This document shows positions 21,958 to 31,461 of a DNA stretch of 32,000 bases, piece by piece. Source of the DNA: Pyrodictium delaneyi (GTDB lineage Archaea > Thermoproteota > Thermoprotei_A > Sulfolobales > Pyrodictiaceae). The notes beneath the pieces were generated by a model. That model had not been told where the DNA came from, did no database searches, and saw only the letters and a program-made list of their open reading frames with translations. The stretch covers positions 990,001 through 1,022,000 of the forward strand of contig NZ_CP013011.1 of assembly GCF_001412615.1 (NCBI RefSeq). The letters run 5' to 3'. The position numbers were made by a program, and so were the translations under genes. The first letter of the stretch is position 1, and every line of letters begins with the position of its first letter.

Positions 21958-22848
21958 CTACTGCTCCAGGAACATGTTGTAGATTGCTAGTGTCGCTGCT
22001 AGAGCTTCTTCAACACGGACAGTACGTGTACCCTGATTCGGTATAGTATTGTATATCCTATCAAAGACCGCTTCGGGCTCTAAGCCCTCACTATTAGCTA
22101 TCTCAAAAAGCCCTTTGTCGGGGGCTCCAAAGAATAACGCTATCCCGCCTCGGCTAGCGGCTTCCCTAGCATCTCTCACTGCCTTGTCCGCTGTTAGAAC
22201 CTCGCCGAAACGGCTAGTGGCTACTCGGAGCAACCCGCTAGCAGTCTCTAGTGCTTCCCGGAGACCTCGTACTACGGTTATACTGAACCCTGTATAGATT
22301 CCTGCCTCGTCCTCCCTTAGTATGTGTAGCTTGGGAGGATTTAGCGACTCGATTCTAACGAGTACACGTTTACTACGCTTTAACCAGTGGGGTTTCGCAC
22401 ACTTAACATACTTGCCCAACCCAGCATCGAGCACCACTAGGCCACCAAGGTCGCGTACAACCAGCGCTTCGCGAATCTCGCCCACGTGAGGCCCGCCTAC
22501 ACCGTGCGTAGGCAGCTGTAGCGGCGGGAGGATACCAACATACCTTAGCTCCGGCTTGTATGGGTAAAGCTTTTTCTTCAAGTAGGGAGCCGTAAGCATA
22601 TAGCCTATTATTTCCTCCATCAACTTAGCATGTTTCTCAGCATCATTTCTGTCAACATATACTATAAGCCGTGTAGCACGGAATACAGCTAGTATTCTTG
22701 CAAGGATACCAGTCTTAATAGTCTTTAACATCAAACCATGTTCTGTCGAAAGATAGGAGGCTGGCACTGCTACAGCTAGCTCAAGCCTCCTAGCTGAGGG
22801 TACACTACGGCTCTTCATCCCTAGTAGCCTCGAGCCAGGATGCTTCAC
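21958..22848 (-). CDS. DUF171/COG2106 SPOUT-class (trefoil-knot) putative RNA methyltransferase
   Basis: LAVAVPASYLSTEHGLMLKTIKTGILARILAVFRATRLIVY...GILPPLQLPTHGV fits my memory of the family found directly upstream of rpl3 in archaea. The start is GTG at 22848 (an AATTAT box about 27 nt upstream suggests a leaderless mRNA) or ATG at 22818. Confidence 0.7.
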   Translation of the reverse strand: MKHPGSRLLGMKSRSVPSARRLELAVAVPASYLSTEHGLMLKTIKTGILARILAVFRATRLIVYVDRNDAEKHAKLMEEIIGYMLTAPYLKKKLYPYKPELRYVGILPPLQLPTHGVGGPHVGEIREALVVRDLGGLVVLDAGLGKYVKCAKPHWLKRSKRVLVRIESLNPPKLHILREDEAGIYTGFSITVVRGLREALETASGLLRVATSRFGEVLTADKAVRDAREAASRGGIALFFGAPDKGLFEIANSEGLEPEAVFDRIYNTIPNQGTRTVRVEEALAATLAIYNMFLEQ

Positions 22849-24010: not shown

Positions 24011-24289
24011 TTGGGGAAGGAGCGGCGCCTCGTTAGGATATTCTTCAACACATATTATACTGATGTAGCTGAGGCTGTTCTCAAGGAGCTTAAGAGCCTA
24101 GGCTACGAGGTAAAGGCTACTAATTCTAGAGTAGTCCCAGAGCTATACTACGTTGAGATAAATGTCGGCAATACCGATCCCAGAGATGTTGCAGAAAAAG
24201 TACGGGCCCTGCTAGAAGATACTAGGGAAAAACACAGAGGCCTTGTGTTCGGCATCAAAGTGTATAGTATCGATACGTCTTCATCATAG
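24011..24289 (+). CDS. hypothetical small protein (92 aa, predicted alpha/beta), coupled to the YkgJ-like gene
   Basis: The ORF starts 2 nt after the upstream stop and has no internal Met, so it needs a TTG start. The alternating beta/alpha pattern (RIFFNTYY...AEAVLKELKSLGYEV...YYVEINV...) looks protein-like. No family recognised. Confidence 0.45.
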   Translation: MGKERRLVRIFFNTYYTDVAEAVLKELKSLGYEVKATNSRVVPELYYVEINVGNTDPRDVAEKVRALLEDTREKHRGLVFGIKVYSIDTSSS

Positions 24290-24314: not shown

Positions 24315-26333
24315 CTAACTGCGGAGTATTCTACGCATAATGGATGGTATGTCCTGGGGAGTTCTTATGATGTAGAATCTTGTATAGGGCTTGATTCTGT
24401 TCAGCACTCTGGCGTCATGCTTTGGTGGAAGAACTATGGTTATTTGCCATCCTTTTAATCTTAGTTCACGGATCACCTCTTCGACAGTGGCATCGGTTGC
24501 TATGGTTTGTTTGAGATCACTTATGAGCACTATATGACGTGGTGTTGAGCCTTTAGCTGCTGAGCGCAGAGCATCAACTATGTTTGTGTAGCCTGAAAAC
24601 CTCGTCGAGAGTATTAGGTCTACTACATGAAGTGGGTTGATGTGCTTTATGTTTCTGTATATTGTTATGTTTTCGTCGAATACTATGAGCTTTGATATGC
24701 TCGTGGCCAGCGCAGATGCTGCTAGAATCGTGTAGAGTGCGTATGACCGCATACTGCCGCTCTTATCGACGACCACTATGTATTGTCTTGTAGTGTGCTT
24801 GGTTATCCTGGTTAACGGGCTGGGGTTAAAGCGTACTATCTTTTCTAGGGTCTTGCGTATGTGAAGTCTTCCCTTGGTTTTGCTTAGACGGATTTTCCGA
24901 GACGGTCTTAGCCCGGTATTTCCACGAGATTCACGCCAGAGACTCCGCATAAGCATTATCGCGTAGCTTCGTACTCTCTTATTGTTTGCATCGTTATATA
25001 TAGTGCTGAGTAGCTTTAGTGCCTCGAACACATCCATATTCTTTACAATGCTCTTAATGAGTGAATAGATGTCGCCACGTTCTGCGGCATCAATTAATTG
25101 CTTAAGCCGCGTTATCTCAGATTCTACTATTTGCGCTAAATCAATGTTTTCGTAATGGTCTTTTATTTTACTCCATTCTTCTACTGCACGTGTATACTCA
25201 TATTCTGCATAGTCCAATAGGGCACGTGTATCGTCAACTAGACTTTTTGCGAGATACTTTTTCGCGGTAGCAAGCCTATTAAGGACTTCTAGGGCCTCGC
25301 TTTGGCTTGATCCTATACTACTTAGTAGGCTTATCTGGTTCCTATTGAGGATCTCTGTTACGACACCGCGTCGGGAAGCTTGCATACCTATAGCTTTGAG
25401 AGCTATTTCGACTGCACCCTCCTTATTGTACGTAGAGAGTTCAGCTACGACATCTAGTACTGCCTCTTTTCCAAAGTCTTTGACTGCCCTTTCTGCTAGC
25501 TTTGGGTTCTGCTCGAGTAGATAGCGCAAATGCTTCTTCTGGAGCAGTTTTTCTTTGCGTAGAATCTCGTAGATGCTTGATGCGTCGCTATAGTGTTCTC
25601 CTTTGTTTATCTTTTCCTCTATGGTCCTTGACACAATGTATCTTAGATGTTCATTCTTGCCAGCGTGCCGATAGAGTCTTGTTAGCTCGTCTATGCTGAG
25701 ATCTTCGAGATCTATGTAGTTGAGTAGTTCAGTTCCCATTGACGCTACTATGCTACTGTTACGGGTTATGTTACGTCTTATTACATCCTTTATTGCATCT
25801 TTATAGTCTCTGTAGTGTCTTGCTAGCTGTTCTGCTATTCTACGCGCCTGGCTACTGTGTACGACATACTCGCCTTTTCGTCCTCTACGTATTATTCCTA
25901 GTAGCTTGAGTCTAGCGTATGCACTCTGTGCTTTCTCGCTAGTCAGTCTCCGATGGCGTATCTTTGAACCATATCGTAGTCCTAGTGCCTGCAGATCCTT
26001 ATCTATTTCAGCCTCTATGTGTTTTGCAACATATGCTTGGCTGGGCTGACGCCGTTTTGTGATTTCTCTAACTATCTCATGTATTATGGCGCCTTCACGC
26101 ATTCTCTTGGCGTATACAGATGAAAGAACGAACGCTATATCGTCTGGAGCAAGGGTTTTTGCACCGGATACCGCCATGTACAGTGCTAGTAGGCGGGCGG
26201 CCTCGACTACTTCAGCCGTTGATACGTGAAGCCCCCTCTTTCTCGCTTCTAGTGCAGTCTCGTAAGCAATCTGGTACATAGCTTGATCGCTGAGCTTATG
26301 GGTGTAGCCCGAATACTTTCTCGAGGGCCTCAT
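24315..26333 (-). CDS. VWA/MIDAS-domain protein, CoxE-like C-terminus, with an N-terminal helical region of about 515 aa and unknown function
   Basis: The C-terminal 157 aa (about 24318-24788) carry a complete MIDAS motif: VVVDKSGSM (DxSxS, D codon at 24765-24767), FSGYTNIVDAL (Thr) and VLISDL (Asp). They are preceded by GRLHIRKTLEKIVRF..., the basic segment typical of CoxE-like VWA proteins. A GGAGG SD lies 9-13 nt before ATG 26333, and the gene overlaps the MoxR gene by 38 nt. Confidence 0.85.
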   Translation of the reverse strand: MRPSRKYSGYTHKLSDQAMYQIAYETALEARKRGLHVSTAEVVEAARLLALYMAVSGAKTLAPDDIAFVLSSVYAKRMREGAIIHEIVREITKRRQPSQAYVAKHIEAEIDKDLQALGLRYGSKIRHRRLTSEKAQSAYARLKLLGIIRRGRKGEYVVHSSQARRIAEQLARHYRDYKDAIKDVIRRNITRNSSIVASMGTELLNYIDLEDLSIDELTRLYRHAGKNEHLRYIVSRTIEEKINKGEHYSDASSIYEILRKEKLLQKKHLRYLLEQNPKLAERAVKDFGKEAVLDVVAELSTYNKEGAVEIALKAIGMQASRRGVVTEILNRNQISLLSSIGSSQSEALEVLNRLATAKKYLAKSLVDDTRALLDYAEYEYTRAVEEWSKIKDHYENIDLAQIVESEITRLKQLIDAAERGDIYSLIKSIVKNMDVFEALKLLSTIYNDANNKRVRSYAIMLMRSLWRESRGNTGLRPSRKIRLSKTKGRLHIRKTLEKIVRFNPSPLTRITKHTTRQYIVVVDKSGSMRSYALYTILAASALATSISKLIVFDENITIYRNIKHINPLHVVDLILSTRFSGYTNIVDALRSAAKGSTPRHIVLISDLKQTIATDATVEEVIRELRLKGWQITIVLPPKHDARVLNRIKPYTRFYIIRTPQDIPSIMRRILRS

Positions 26334-27399
26334 CTACAATTTCCTCCTCTCCAACCCTCTTGTAGAGAACTATAGTTGCTGCATCTACGACTTCACTTAC
26401 TGTCACTTGCTGTTTGCCACGCAAGGATGCTAACCTGCCAGCTATTCGGGACCATAGAACCGTGTCTGCAGGCCCCGGCTTATATGCAGCTTTTTGGCGT
26501 AGAAGGTTAACTACCTGTACCATTCCCTCGAGTATCTTAGGTTCTAGCTCGACATCTACATCGTATCTGAGCCGGATTATCTCTATCTCGACTTCAGGGG
26601 GCGGATAGTTGAATGGTATTCTTACAACTCTCCGTAGAAATGCATCACTTAGCTCGCTCTGAGCATAGTCCTCTGGGTTACTGGTGAATATTACTTGGAA
26701 ACCCTCGCCTTTTGCGTAAAAAATCTTCCTGAGTTCAGGTACTATTATGCGACGTTTATCTATTATATCTAGGAGCATGTTTTGGAATTCTTCATTACTT
26801 CTCCTTATCTCGTCGACCAGTACACCAGCGTCGAGTATTAATGCTGCAAGCAGGGGGCGTGGTATGAAACTTTTCTCGTTAAACCCATACTTAAACGCCA
26901 TGAGTGGGTGAAAGTCTCCAATAACCCTATATTCGTCATAGTTCTCACTACATGGTATGACAAGAGCTGGCTTGCCTGCCCATAGTGTTAGTATTGCTTC
27001 ACCTATCTCCGTCTTTCCTGTACCTGGCGGCCCTTCGAAGAGCACTGGCCGCCCTGCAAGAAAAGCCGCTACTACTAACGTTACTAGCTTCTTATCTACA
27101 AGCAGTTTATACTCGGTTTTTAGGATTTCCATCATTTTATTAACGTTCCTAATTGGTTTTCGTTTATATTTACTCATTATCTCAGAATATATATTAACAA
27201 CCTTCTCTTCAACACTTTCCATAGCGTTATCCGGGTTATTCTCTTCACCCATGCCAACCATTCCTACTATAGCCTCTACATCTAGACCCTCTTGACTCTC
27301 CACATTCTTTCTGTCCATTACTACACCCTTCATTACTATTCCCAGAAGGTGTAGGGGATAATTTACTACTCCACCAGGTTCTTTACATACCTTGGCCAT
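26296..27399 (-). CDS. MoxR-family AAA+ ATPase (CoxD/APE2220-like) with an acidic N-terminal extension of about 70 aa
   Basis: Walker A is LFEGPPGTGKT (27011-27034) and Walker B is GVLVDEIRRS. The single AAA+ module of about 300 aa is typical of MoxR, and the gene pairs with a downstream VWA gene. A GGAG SD lies 4 nt before ATG 27399. Confidence 0.88.
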   Translation of the reverse strand: MAKVCKEPGGVVNYPLHLLGIVMKGVVMDRKNVESQEGLDVEAIVGMVGMGEENNPDNAMESVEEKVVNIYSEIMSKYKRKPIRNVNKMMEILKTEYKLLVDKKLVTLVVAAFLAGRPVLFEGPPGTGKTEIGEAILTLWAGKPALVIPCSENYDEYRVIGDFHPLMAFKYGFNEKSFIPRPLLAALILDAGVLVDEIRRSNEEFQNMLLDIIDKRRIIVPELRKIFYAKGEGFQVIFTSNPEDYAQSELSDAFLRRVVRIPFNYPPPEVEIEIIRLRYDVDVELEPKILEGMVQVVNLLRQKAAYKPGPADTVLWSRIAGRLASLRGKQQVTVSEVVDAATIVLYKRVGEEEIVDEALEKVFGLHP

Positions 27400-27520: not shown

Positions 27521-27973
27521 TTGGGCAAGGCGAGAAGAAGTAAAGAGGACAATGTTATCTATAGTGTATGGATACGTCACGGTCCTGATACAATCCACTA
27601 TGATATGGTATTCGAAGAAGATTGTATAAGACTTATCTATCTGGGTGAGTATTGGCAGCGTGTTAGACCTAGAACCGGACTACAACAGCGAGTAGACCTG
27701 TTTATATACTCGCTTAGGAAGCGACGCGAACGAAACATGGGAGAGGCTAGTCATGGATTTACTATTGATTATTGCAGCATAAAGAGCTACAATTTAGTTA
27801 GACCGCGTATCGCATCACCTCAAGGCGATGTAACCCCTGGTGTTCTAGAGCTGACGCTCCGGGACGGGAGACGCGTACGTATAGAGTTCTCACCTAAGGT
27901 CTATGAGGTTGTTAAGTCTGCTGTAAAGAGATATGTGATCAGGGGCATAGAGAAATGTAGGGATGGCGGCTAG
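27521..27973 (+). CDS. hypothetical protein (150 aa), divergent from the MoxR gene
   Basis: ORF with a TTG start preceded by GGGGT. Basic N-terminus, mixed beta-rich sequence (VLELTLRDGRRVRIEF). No family recognised. Confidence 0.45.
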   Translation: MGKARRSKEDNVIYSVWIRHGPDTIHYDMVFEEDCIRLIYLGEYWQRVRPRTGLQQRVDLFIYSLRKRRERNMGEASHGFTIDYCSIKSYNLVRPRIASPQGDVTPGVLELTLRDGRRVRIEFSPKVYEVVKSAVKRYVIRGIEKCRDGG

Positions 27974-28032: not shown

Positions 28033-28593
28033 TCAACCGTCGGAGCCTTTGGATAACTTATTCACGAATCTTATGAATATGTAGTCCTTTGACGTTTCAC
28101 CTACATATCTCCCATAATTTGGCAAACATGCTTTCATACTGTGTGCCTTCTTTAGGCTCGTGACTACTGCTGCAGTCTTAGTCACACGGTCTATCTCATT
28201 TATAGCCCTTAGTTTATCATCTACAAGGTCTATTACTGTGAACGATAAGGTATAGTCTATGCTTTTTACACGTAGCGGTATATTCTCAGCATCAGCCTCC
28301 ACAAGTTCTGCAAGATGCCTTAAGTTGAGCATGCTTATGCGACTCTTTGCACGTTCTAACATCCCGGGCGATAGATCAAGACATATATACAATTTTACTT
28401 CAGCTAGTTTGCTTGTAGACTTTAGGTATTCCAGTAATAGCCCGGTTCCACAACCGTCATCTAATACTGTCCCACACACTCCGACAACATTTAGTGCCAA
28501 CTTGTATTTTTCAAACTGCTCTTCCCGATAGAGCTCGTCGTATCCAGCGCTTGTCACGTTGTATTTCTCTCTTAGTACAGCCTTTCTACCCAA
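28033..28593 (-). CDS. class I SAM-dependent methyltransferase (substrate unknown)
   Basis: Motif I is TVLDDGCGTGLLLEYL and the post-I acidic residue lies in ICLDLSPGMLERAK. About 186 aa. Motif I precedes the first ATG, so the start must be TTG at 28593 or a nearby GTG. Confidence 0.75.
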   Translation of the reverse strand: MGRKAVLREKYNVTSAGYDELYREEQFEKYKLALNVVGVCGTVLDDGCGTGLLLEYLKSTSKLAEVKLYICLDLSPGMLERAKSRISMLNLRHLAELVEADAENIPLRVKSIDYTLSFTVIDLVDDKLRAINEIDRVTKTAAVVTSLKKAHSMKACLPNYGRYVGETSKDYIFIRFVNKLSKGSDG

Positions 28594-29333: not shown

Positions 29334-30050
29334 CTACCTCTTCTTGCGGCCAGTCGAGCGCGCTGCTATGTGGCCGACCTTTCTGCCTGGTGGAGCATCT
29401 CTGGATACTGTTGTTGGGAAGCTTGGACTCTGGTGGCTACCACCACCATGTGGGTGGTTCACAGCGTTCATTGCTACACCGCGTACGCGTGGCCATACAT
29501 GGGCCTTAGCCTTCCACTTGTAGTAGGCCGCACCAGCTTTGAGTAGGGGCTTCTCTAAGCGACCAGCACCTGCAACTATTCCTATAGTTGCTCTAGCATC
29601 ATTAGGGACTTCTTTCACTTTCCCGCTGGGTAACTGTACTATAGTCTTATTACCGCTACGACCAAGTATGACAGCATAAGCCCCGGAAGAGCGGGCTAGC
29701 TTCCCACCATCACCAGGCCTTATCTCTATATTATATATCTGCGTACCCTCAGGTATCTTGCCTACTGGAAGTATGTTACCGTTAGCAGGTTTAGCATCCG
29801 GCCCGACCTCTATTATTTGGCCAACATACATACCTTCAGCTGCAGGGATCCAGAACTCCTCACCATTCTCGAGCACTACATGAGCTAGTGGAACCCAGCG
29901 GCCGGGATCATGCACTAGTTCCACTACGCGTCCTCTTAGAGTGGCTGGCGATAGAGGCGGGTATTTGGCCGGCGCTGGGTGTAACCACGGCTTACTGCGA
30001 TATACTGGCGAGCCCTTACCTCTACGCTGTACTATCAAGCGCTTACCCAT
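29334..30050 (-). CDS. rpl2: 50S ribosomal protein L2 (uL2)
   Basis: MGKRLIVQRRGKGSPVYRS...GNILPVGKIPEGTQIYNIE.RPGDGGKLARSSG...VRGVAMNAVNHPHGGG. Confidence 0.95.
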   Translation of the reverse strand: MGKRLIVQRRGKGSPVYRSKPWLHPAPAKYPPLSPATLRGRVVELVHDPGRWVPLAHVVLENGEEFWIPAAEGMYVGQIIEVGPDAKPANGNILPVGKIPEGTQIYNIEIRPGDGGKLARSSGAYAVILGRSGNKTIVQLPSGKVKEVPNDARATIGIVAGAGRLEKPLLKAGAAYYKWKAKAHVWPRVRGVAMNAVNHPHGGGSHQSPSFPTTVSRDAPPGRKVGHIAARSTGRKKR

Positions 30051-31461
30051 AGCGTAGCACCCGTCCCCAGTGCGTCGCCCCTGGTATACTCTGACTCTTA
30101 ACTGTTATCGGTATAGGGAGTATCTTGAAAGGAATCGCTCTCTGCGCCTGCTGGTAGCGGAGAAGAGCTTCGCCAACACCTAGTCTACGAAGCACATCGA
30201 GATCCTCATACACGACACCACTATACCTACTGACATCTCTTATGTATACATCATCTACTGATCCGAACATAATCACATTGCTGATATTATTCCATACTTC
30301 AGAGCTATAGTCGCTTGGCTGTTGCGATGAAAGAACGAGACTAATATTGCTACTCCTGCCTTCACGAACTAACCTTCTAACAACATCACTGTTCTTAATT
30401 CTCCAAAACTCGTCTATTACAAGTACCGAACTCACACTATTGTTTCGAAGCACATCAAAGATGGTATCTAATATAGTTTCTAGCTGGATATACTTTTCAT
30501 TCTCACTTAGATACGCCAAGTCTAATACCATAATACCGTGGAAGCTATCACTAAATAAGTTGGAGACAATTAAGTGATGATAACTATATCCATCCTCTAC
30601 TACAACATGTTTTGCTAGTCTGGTCCCCTTCAAAAACCTCCAAACATCTCCCTTGGGATCTACCAACACTGCTTTTACGTCGTAAAGTAACGTAGCCAGT
30701 AATGCAACTAGGACTGCAAGGGTTGTCTTCCCCCTACCAGTTGGCCCCACAATTAAAGTATGTTGAGCACCCCTATTATCCCATAAAGGTAGCCCGACAA
30801 GTTTTCCCAACACCAGGTCGTGTCCGATAGGAACGGTTTTCACACCATCAAGGATCTTACCTAACATGCGTACATACTCCATCCAACTTAAACTCGAGCC
30901 TATAATGCTACTGAGTGATTGAATAATATTCCCACTATTGTTTTTTAAAAAACTCACACTTAGGCATTTACGTTTAGGTTTACAACCAAGTACGGCAAGC
31001 ATATCAATAACACTATTGTAATTTTCTTCAATACTTTTTGTACTACCACATACTAGTATGTATAGTGCCGGCTTGACGGGATCATCATAAACCATAATGT
31101 TTTCATATATCTTCCTAAGCACCTCAAGTTTGTTTCTTGCACGCATATTGTTAGGATTGCGTTCTAGCTCAACCTCGTAGGATAGTATTTTGGACTCTAG
31201 AATCCTCGCAGCATAATTACCTCTAACATGTTTATAGAGTAGCATTATGCCACATATTCTTCTATCCAGTAACTTAGATTTGTTGCCCAGTAGCTTTGTG
31301 AAGCATGTCTCGTCGCCCTTAATCTCGATGAGTACGCCAAGAACGCCATCTGTTAGTTCCGAGACACAAAGAGTATTCACAACTTTATCTCTACCCTTTG
31401 TAAGCTTTACTAGCTTGTATAAATACGTAGCAATGGTACTTATAATCATGTAAATCACCAA
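30043..31461 (-). CDS. VirB4/TrbE/CedB-like P-loop ATPase (AAA_10/DUF87-like), low GC
   Basis: Walker A is LIVGPTGRGKTT (30724-30747) and Walker B context is VLVIDEFWRI, resembling the hhhDEAW of VirB4/TraC-type ATPases. A later LVLSSQQPSD follows (TQ..D-like), and there is an N-terminal non-ATPase domain of about 230 aa. The more likely start is ATG at 31449, preceded by GGTGA at -11..-7. The stop overlaps the rpl2 ATG. Confidence 0.75.
   Translation of the reverse strand: MVIYMIISTIATYLYKLVKLTKGRDKVVNTLCVSELTDGVLGVLIEIKGDETCFTKLLGNKSKLLDRRICGIMLLYKHVRGNYAARILESKILSYEVELERNPNNMRARNKLEVLRKIYENIMVYDDPVKPALYILVCGSTKSIEENYNSVIDMLAVLGCKPKRKCLSVSFLKNNSGNIIQSLSSIIGSSLSWMEYVRMLGKILDGVKTVPIGHDLVLGKLVGLPLWDNRGAQHTLIVGPTGRGKTTLAVLVALLATLLYDVKAVLVDPKGDVWRFLKGTRLAKHVVVEDGYSYHHLIVSNLFSDSFHGIMVLDLAYLSENEKYIQLETILDTIFDVLRNNSVSSVLVIDEFWRIKNSDVVRRLVREGRSSNISLVLSSQQPSDYSSEVWNNISNVIMFGSVDDVYIRDVSRYSGVVYEDLDVLRRLGVGEALLRYQQAQRAIPFKILPIPITVKSQSIPGATHWGRVLRYG

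Follow-up and report, generated by a model that had tools for sequence, protein, structure and literature searches.

What might a MoxR-type AAA+ ATPase and a partner protein with a VWA domain be doing among the ribosomal-protein genes of a hyperthermophilic archaeon? The question is raised by a 32,000-nt stretch of the Pyrodictium delaneyi genome (contig NZ_CP013011.1, positions 990,001 to 1,022,000; hereafter the window), in which an ATPase gene of this type overlaps the gene for a large protein, here called the adaptor, whose VWA domain carries a metal-binding MIDAS motif. A first-pass annotation of the window, made from its letters alone, had picked out the pair and offered two readings, a split midasin-like ribosome-remodeling module and a defense module carried on an island. 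We find that the two genes form a vertically inherited pair, found only in the archaeal order Desulfurococcales in the broad sense and linked there to ribosomal-protein genes. Our preferred interpretation, to which we assign a probability of roughly 0.45, is that they encode an order-specific MoxR/VWA-MIDAS remodeling machine whose client, judging from gene context, probably belongs to the translation apparatus.

Domain Content and Overlap of the Two Genes

The open reading frames (ORFs) lie where the first-pass annotation had placed them (Table 1), and both domain assignments hold. The ATPase matches Pfam AAA_5 with 70 bits (cut-off 22) and contains Walker A (GPPGTGKT, K129), Walker B (VLVDE, D196/E197), sensor 1 (TSNPED), and SDAFLRR motifs, all of them unchanged across 12 of 12 orthologs; its sequence identity is 60–80% across Desulfurococcales. 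The adaptor, identical to Pyrde_1024, matches Pfam VWA_CoxE over residues 476–638 with 46.9 bits (cut-off 26.4), a family also matched by most of its relatives (66 of 68 family members). Its last 157 aa had been described as a VWA domain with a complete MIDAS, a description that Foldseek confirms for the fold. The MIDAS residues (D523-x-S525-x-S527, T583, and D606) are unchanged in 82 members of the family, in an alignment with a mean column identity of 28%, which indicates strong selection on this metal-dependent site. Residues M528, F552, and G581 are also invariant in the same alignment.

The annotated 38-nt overlap is likewise correct, with the ATPase stop codon (TAA, 26298–26296) lying beyond the adaptor ATG at 26333. 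Translation of the two genes is probably coupled. Of the Shine–Dalgarno motifs reported in front of both genes, that of the adaptor stands (GGAGG, 26343–26347, 9 nt 5′ of the ATG), but the one assigned to the ATPase (GAGGAG) is only 3 nt 5′ of the first ATG of its ORF, which is probably not the true start. Translation more probably begins at M28 (27318), because a GGTG lies 5 nt 5′ of this codon, orthologs are only 306–339 aa long, and residues 1–27 of the 367-aa ORF lack conservation. Among one-module sequences the best matches of the ATPase are CbbQ (37.9 bits) and NorQ (33 bits); alignment to these two suggests that it would have the helix-2 insert and assemble into a hexameric ring.

Distribution, Pairing, and Gene Order

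The adaptor family is small, compact, and set off from generic VWA proteins. Searched exhaustively with its profile, 1.84 billion representative proteins yielded only 124 matches, 77 of them 600–720 aa long, and members are annotated merely as “VWA domain-containing,” “CoxE family,” or hypothetical. Where the source is named, the family spans Pyrodictiaceae, Desulfurococcaceae, Acidilobaceae/Caldisphaeraceae, Aeropyrum, Thermogladius, Thermosphaera, and Thermodiscus, the sole exception being a 373-aa fragment on a 1.2-kb contig labeled Chromatiaceae. Family and genome scans thus find the pair only in Desulfurococcales in the broad sense, a single crenarchaeal order. No prior description of it was found in the literature searched, and reviews that list the studied MoxR-vWA systems omit it (PMC7159879, PMC3495828).

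Gene order was compared in 84 loci, four of them gathered by exact-protein look-ups and the others being the best 80 of 117 loci from a pattern scan of species-level genomes. The scan worked with the ATPase alignment; patterns derived from the VWA protein gave no match. In all 78 loci with room on the contig, the adaptor gene follows the ATPase gene (77 by tblastn, and the very divergent locus L069 by profile comparison, with E = 1e-61 at 17% identity), and in the remaining six the contig stops just past the ATPase gene. In the majority of loci the genes either overlap or lie end to end.

A ribosomal-protein gene lies within 5 kb of the pair in 48 of the 50 loci that have at least 5 kb on both sides, and the link to S19 and the S10-like operon persists through at least three local gene orders. 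In Desulfurococcaceae and Thermogladius (layout a) the order is L3-L4-L23-L2-(ATPase-VWA)-S19-L22-S3. In Acidilobaceae and Aeropyrum (layout b) the genes for isoleucyl-tRNA synthetase (IleRS) and a Cas4-like nuclease precede the pair, giving IleRS-Cas4-like-(ATPase-VWA)-S19-L22-S3, with a variant in locus L083 that reads L2-IleRS-Cas4-like-ATPase-VWA-S19 on one strand. The commonest arrangements, also on one strand, are L2-ATPase-VWA-S19-L22-S3 and IleRS-Cas4-like-ATPase-VWA-S19. Pyrodictiaceae, including the window, have a third order (layout c), with the S19-L2 block on one side and inverted relative to the pair; the intervening genes encode an S-adenosylmethionine (SAM) methyltransferase, a 150-aa ORF, a 92-aa ORF, and a CxxCxxCC protein. 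In most Pyrodictiaceae loci, among them L003 and L008, the L3-L4 block is inverted as well; in the window, L001, and L005 it runs in the same direction as the pair.

Downstream of the adaptor gene, S19 is codirectional and less than 260 nt away in 39 loci, in which the adaptor stop codon and the earliest potential S19 start are 6–246 nt apart (median 79). These spacers are merely 6–50 nt in Desulfurococcaceae-type loci, and the complete Thermogladius genome reads L3-L4-L23-L2, 52 nt, ATPase-VWA, 41 nt, S19-L22. The ribosomal-gene neighborhood pointed out in the first-pass annotation is therefore a far stronger association than one window shows, with adjacency to S19 and the S10-like operon found order-wide.

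Evolution of the Pair

Median identity to the window proteins is 60% for the ATPase, 60% for L22, and 57% for S3, and the divergence of the ATPase tracks that of L3 (Spearman r = 0.91), L4 (0.86), and L2 (0.75). The adaptor has diverged fast, with a median identity of 27%. Because conservation of the ATPase equals that of ribosomal proteins and its divergence parallels theirs, the pair is vertically inherited, combining a constrained motor with a fast-evolving adaptor.

This pattern is unlike that of a mobile or defense module, and it argues against an anti-virus or conflict system of the vWA-MoxR ternary type, or one derived from a virus. So do the fixed genomic position of the pair, which is uniformly present at one syntenic site, and three negative results: no PADLOC family is matched by any of five module proteins, no tblastn match to the pair was found in 50,697 phage or virus records, and no third component or effector is conserved family-wide. 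What speaks for such an origin is a weak bpMoxR match of the ATPase in Pfam (16.7 bits vs. a cut-off of 27), a good fold match between the adaptor and the VWA protein ORF892 of the Acidianus two-tailed virus (ATV), and the Cas4-like nuclease gene upstream of the pair in about 20 loci. We consider a defense or viral role highly improbable, and the island alternative of the first-pass annotation falls with it.

Structure of the Adaptor

An AlphaFold model based on the 82-sequence alignment reached a predicted local distance difference test (pLDDT) score of 91.8 and a predicted TM-score (pTM) of 0.78. It replaced an earlier model from a shallow alignment, for which pLDDT was 72.8 and which gave no significant fold matches. 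The current model is all-helical over residues 13–473 (27 helices), followed by a linker with short strands and a compact VWA fold. The long N-terminal region had gone unrecognized in the first-pass annotation, and indeed no Pfam or NCBIfam family covers residues 1–475 of the window protein, while no recurrent Pfam family, TROVE included, occurs in the N-terminal region of 68 family members. When the bacterial protein P0128 (DUF5682 plus VWA_CoxE) is aligned to the family with hhalign, only residues 415–656 are covered. For these reasons, residues 1–415 are unique to the adaptor family. DUF5682 and P0128 were ruled out as homologs of the helical domain, the likeness being confined to the CoxE-type module.

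The chain is basic in all its parts, and this charge is conserved in the family. Residues 1–475 have a family median net charge of +18 and a median isoelectric point (pI) of 9.6, and the most basic part of this domain is a winged-helix-like element (residues 121–175, median pI 11.2). Within the element Y139, L142, and G146 are 81–96% conserved, and its profile match to the GntR-type helix-turn-helix repressor NanR is marginal (E = 0.09). The linker (residues 476–515, median pI 11.7) has conserved arginines at positions 489, 493, and 501 and lies within the CoxE-type module, as the Pfam VWA_CoxE match begins at residue 476. The VWA domain itself has a median pI of 9.9. Because all three parts are basic family-wide, nucleic-acid binding by the adaptor is plausible.

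Foldseek returned rigid fold matches for the VWA part only, namely the VWA domain of NorD (E = 1.3e-5), the MIDAS domain of Rea1 (E = 3.1e-4), and TFIIH p44. The NorD alignment extends over about 243 columns, exceeding the 157-residue VWA core. With NorD as the best structural match, and with a VWA module that is Pfam VWA_CoxE, one might expect a chaperone of the CoxD/CoxE or NorQ/NorD type that inserts a metal cofactor into a metalloenzyme, an expectation to which the neighboring CxxCxxCC protein of Pyrodictiaceae, with its putative Zn/Fe-chelating domain, would add. However, the CxxCxxCC gene is missing from the Desulfurococcaceae layout, and the N-terminal domain of the adaptor is unlike those of CoxE, ViaA, and NorD in sequence. 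Nor was any CO dehydrogenase, NO reductase, rubisco, or other metalloenzyme client found in the loci whose genes were named; matches to window proteins across the 84 loci were to ribosomal proteins, IleRS, methyltransferases, and Ced genes. The CoxE-type metalloenzyme role, which the first-pass annotation had named as the one to favor should its own readings fail, is thus unlikely.

Weak matches to DUF5682 were seen at the ATPase C-terminus (26296..26500), in four members of the adaptor family, and in P0128. DUF5682 is a bacterial family of unknown function that is fused with a VWA_CoxE module in a 1157-aa Corynebacterium protein, and these matches hint at a related, uncharacterized bacterial AAA_5/VWA system.

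A Candidate Client in the Translation Apparatus

If NorQ-NorD, CbbQ-CbbO, and Rea1 are taken as guides, the ATPase would form a hexameric ring, on which one copy of the 672-aa adaptor would dock via its CoxE-type VWA module. The metal ion at the MIDAS would grip the client by an acidic side chain. The N-terminal domain, basic and helical with its winged-helix-like element, would select the client and might bind RNA or a ribonucleoprotein (RNP), and ATP hydrolysis would pull on the client. A ribosomal-subunit assembly intermediate, or another rRNA-protein complex, is the candidate client. In the published model for MoxR/VWA couples, the VWA protein plugs the pore of the hexamer, its MIDAS binds an acidic residue of the client, and its N-terminal domain provides specificity (PMC9976466). 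As far as sequence can tell, all features required by this model are present and conserved in the Desulfurococcales pair. In the sense common to all MoxR/VWA couples, the pair can be called Rea1-like in its mode of action, and gene context would extend the likeness to action on the ribosome.

We regard the translation apparatus as the most likely source of the client for three reasons. The pair keeps its place beside S19-L22-S3, in many cases with L2 on its other side and in some together with IleRS; the ATPase has a rate of evolution as low as that of ribosomal proteins; and the adaptor carries a basic helical and winged-helix domain, which favors a translation-related client.

Several observations weigh against this interpretation. 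Gene context alone is fallible, because the Ced genes, which are clearly non-ribosomal, are also attached to L2. The family is found only in Desulfurococcales and so is not a general archaeal ribosome factor, and the fast evolution of the adaptor is unexpected for a protein that would read a very conserved ribosomal surface. In three loci with the pair (L067, L070, and L071), no gene for a ribosomal protein was detected; the pair's neighbors in L070 are IleRS, the Cas4-like gene, and pyrimidine-biosynthesis genes. Finally, co-transcription with the ribosomal genes is not uniform: for layout a it is likely, for layout b uncertain, since the short spacers between the adaptor gene and S19 are without TATA-like runs, which are present in many of the ~100-nt spacers.

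The same machine could instead serve a non-translational housekeeping client, with its ribosomal position owed only to expression coupled to growth or to an accident of history, as with SecY, adenylate kinase, or the Ced genes. The equal synteny of Ced genes with L2, the three loci lacking a detected ribosomal gene, the fast-evolving adaptor, and the TATA-like elements 5′ of S19 in many loci, which suggest separate transcription units, would all fit this explanation. It accounts less readily for the position of the pair inside the operon in Desulfurococcaceae and Thermogladius, between L2 and S19 with spacers of 6–52 nt, or for S19 adjacency being kept through three rearranged layouts, and no alternative client gene is conserved in all layouts. 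We judge a housekeeping client of this kind to be a serious possibility, though a somewhat doubtful one.

Within the preferred interpretation, that of a translation-apparatus client, a narrower proposal is that the pair is a split prokaryotic counterpart of Rea1/midasin, which remodels ribosomal-subunit intermediates or clears misassembled rRNA-protein particles in a Ro60-like manner. This we advance tentatively, as possible rather than probable. If true, the Rea1-like machine of hyperthermophilic Desulfurococcales arose independently of the eukaryotic one, and no dedicated AAA+ machine for ribosome assembly would have been described in Archaea before it. Energy-driven AAA+ remodeling of ribosome precursors has been described for eukaryotes (Rea1, Rix7, and Drg1), and archaeal ribosome assembly is poorly understood. 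Conserved and slow to evolve, placed within the operon, and equipped with an invariant MIDAS and a new basic helical domain, the pair is a concrete candidate for such a machine in archaea growing at 80–110 °C, for which RNP misassembly may be a particular problem. Even with a non-ribosomal client, it would add a well-defined and structurally modeled adaptor type to the MoxR/VWA chaperones.

Neighboring Genes

Coordinates of the pair and of other features in the window are collected in Table 1. Divergently upstream of the ATPase gene is the 150-aa ORF, which has no match in Pfam, NCBIfam, PADLOC, or PHROGs and is conserved at 23–62% identity in five loci. Loci of Pyrodictiaceae and of some Desulfurococcaceae, about 38 of 80, have it in this position; Acidilobaceae-type loci lack it. 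A universal third subunit is ruled out by its presence in only about half of the loci; it is a lineage-restricted neighbor that may at most be an accessory partner. In about 20 loci of the Acidilobaceae/Aeropyrum type, the gene directly upstream of the ATPase, after IleRS, encodes the Cas4-like PD-(D/E)XK nuclease of about 230 aa (e.g., L055:9248–9937 and L059:9228–9923, both on the plus strand), which could be an accessory partner in that clade.

The two methyltransferases near the pair had been described as RNA-type in the first-pass annotation. One is so by family name, a putative SPOUT-class enzyme whose gene is another conserved non-ribosomal member of the cluster, but the other is a generic class I SAM enzyme. 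The 92-aa ORF that travels with the CxxCxxCC gene in Pyrodictiaceae is found upstream of IleRS in other clades.

At the far end of the window, a CedB-like gene overlaps the start of L2. Such a gene is also upstream of L2 in L001–L004, and related loci have CedA1 genes farther upstream, so that in these genomes the ribosomal cluster is physically joined to genes of the crenarchaeal DNA-import (Ced) system. GC content drops to 36–43% between 30 and 32 kb of the window. For S19, whose longest ORF has about 56 residues before the Pfam S19 domain, tblastn alignments in other loci begin at about residue 22. Probably the start has been called too far upstream, or else the N-terminal extension is lineage-specific.

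Table 1. Features of the ATPase-adaptor pair and its neighbors in the window (position 1 is the first nucleotide of the 32,000-nt stretch).
Feature	Coordinates	Strand	Remarks
MoxR-type AAA_5 ATPase, one module	26296..27399	−	Longest ORF 367 aa; likely 340 aa from M28 (27318)
VWA/MIDAS adaptor, 672 aa, partner of the ATPase	24315..26333	−	ORF; ATG at 26333
Overlap of ATPase 3′ end and adaptor 5′ end, 38 nt	26296..26333	−	ATPase stop/adaptor ATG
Adaptor N-terminal all-helical domain, residues 1–475	24909..26333	−	Basic; no recognized family
Adaptor winged-helix-like element, residues 121–175	25809..25973	−	Helix 133–145, beta-hairpin 148–157, helix 160–173
Adaptor basic linker, residues 476–515	24789..24908	−	Part of CoxE-type module; precedes VWA fold
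Adaptor VWA domain, residues 516–672	24318..24788	−	Complete MIDAS; D523, S525, S527 at nt 24753–24767, T583, D606
150-aa ORF	27521..27973	+	Divergent from ATPase gene; no family match
CxxCxxCC protein, 191 aa	23433..24008	+	Putative Zn/Fe-chelating domain; adjoins pair in Pyrodictiaceae
92-aa ORF	24011..24289	+	No family; travels with CxxCxxCC gene in Pyrodictiaceae
SPOUT-class putative RNA methyltransferase	21958..22848	−	Methyltrn_RNA_3, E = 1e-41; in most loci immediately 5′ of L3
Generic class I SAM methyltransferase	28033..28593		Family match
S19, longest ORF, 158 aa	28818..29294	−	GTG start; ~56 residues before Pfam S19 domain
CedB-like HerA/VirB4-type ATPase	30043..31461	−	Pfam AAA_10; overlaps L2 gene start by 8 nt, same strand

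Comparison with Known MoxR/VWA Systems

The layout of the pair is closest to that of NorQ-NorD and CbbQ-CbbO, in which a one-module AAA_5 ATPase of about 300 aa works with a partner of 600–760 aa built from a specificity domain at the N-terminus, a linker, and a MIDAS-bearing VWA domain at the C-terminus. The best structural match of the adaptor VWA domain is that of NorD within NorQ-NorD complexes. The first-pass annotation had called the adaptor unusually large, which is true relative to CoxE but not relative to NorD, another MoxR partner, which has a mass of 70 kDa (PMC9976466). Unlike these systems, the Desulfurococcales pair has no NO reductase or rubisco context, its N-terminal domain is unrelated in sequence, and its genes lie inside a ribosomal-protein operon in a single order.

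With CoxD-CoxE the pair shares the VWA module, including a basic GRxDxR linker, that belongs to Pfam VWA_CoxE. It differs from CoxE in the extra 475-residue helical domain and in loci with no CO-dehydrogenase genes nearby. Two MoxR subfamilies, APE0892 and APE2220, are called after Aeropyrum pernix genes (PMC3893208); CoxD is of the APE2220 subfamily, and the ATPase described here may be a member of one or the other. The equivalog cut-offs of several named families are not reached: NCBIfam MadB scores 90.8 bits vs. 475 and MadC 19.6 vs. 600, and for the gas-vesicle AAA+ protein GvpN the ATPase scores 59.1 bits vs. 266.8. The names MadB and MadC were dropped on account of these scores, and they were not found in the literature searched as names for an ATPase-VWA pair.

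Rea1/midasin shares with the pair an AAA_5-clade motor and a MIDAS domain, the latter also a fold match. Ribosomal particles are its client class, which for the archaeal pair is proposed from gene context. In midasin, six AAA modules and the MIDAS are joined in one chain of 4,700–4,900 residues, whereas here a single module works with a separate adaptor, and the Rea1 ubiquitin-like ligands Ytm1 and Rsa4 are eukaryotic. Midasin was the top PDB match of the ATPase (93.6 bits), but this is an artefact, being summed over six tandem modules. Taken singly, its highest-scoring modules reach 28.7 and 26.3 bits in S. pombe and 23.1 bits in yeast, less than CbbQ. A midasin top match for an AAA_5 protein should be judged module by module. 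By these scores nothing ties the ATPase specially to midasin within the AAA_5 clade, of which it looks like an ordinary member, and with the family confined to one order, the specific midasin kinship suggested by the first-pass annotation does not hold.

Ro60/Rsr proteins (TROVE plus VWA) resemble the adaptor in overall layout, with a long region of helical repeats and after it a VWA domain that carries a MIDAS, and Ro60 is the top natural PDB match of the family profile (E = 0.029). Its Foldseek alignment covers about 600 columns with E = 5.7e-5, but with TM-scores of 0.20–0.26 and a root mean square deviation of ~20 Å it reflects a likeness of layout with no rigid superposition. Ro-like phage proteins also fold-match the adaptor. 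Homology of the N-terminal domain to Ro60/TROVE is unconfirmed given the low TM-scores and Pfam TROVE matches in none of 68 family members. We know of no dedicated AAA+ partner of Ro60.

Another crenarchaeal MoxR/VWA pair is p618 (MoxR) and p892 (VWA) of ATV, of which p618 has been placed in the RavA subfamily (PMC3893208). In a viral library, only one fold match of the adaptor ranks above ORF892 (E = 7.7e-6, 393 columns), but the viral proteins have a tail-assembly role and no tblastn-detectable sequence similarity to the Desulfurococcales pair. The vWA-MoxR ternary conflict systems have a MoxR plus vWA core that is thought to derive from CoxD-CoxE (Kaur et al., 2020; PMC7159879). They require a third component (VMAP, iSTAND, FtsH, or beta-propeller) and effectors, none of which is found here, and they are mobile systems, mostly of multicellular bacteria, unlike the fixed, vertically inherited pair of Desulfurococcales.

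The pair belongs to the MoxR/VWA chaperone kind; midasin, CoxDE, the ternary conflict systems, GvpN, and MadBC are families of which it is not a member. It is set apart by the 475-residue helical domain of its adaptor, its fixation inside a ribosomal-protein operon, and its restriction to one archaeal order.

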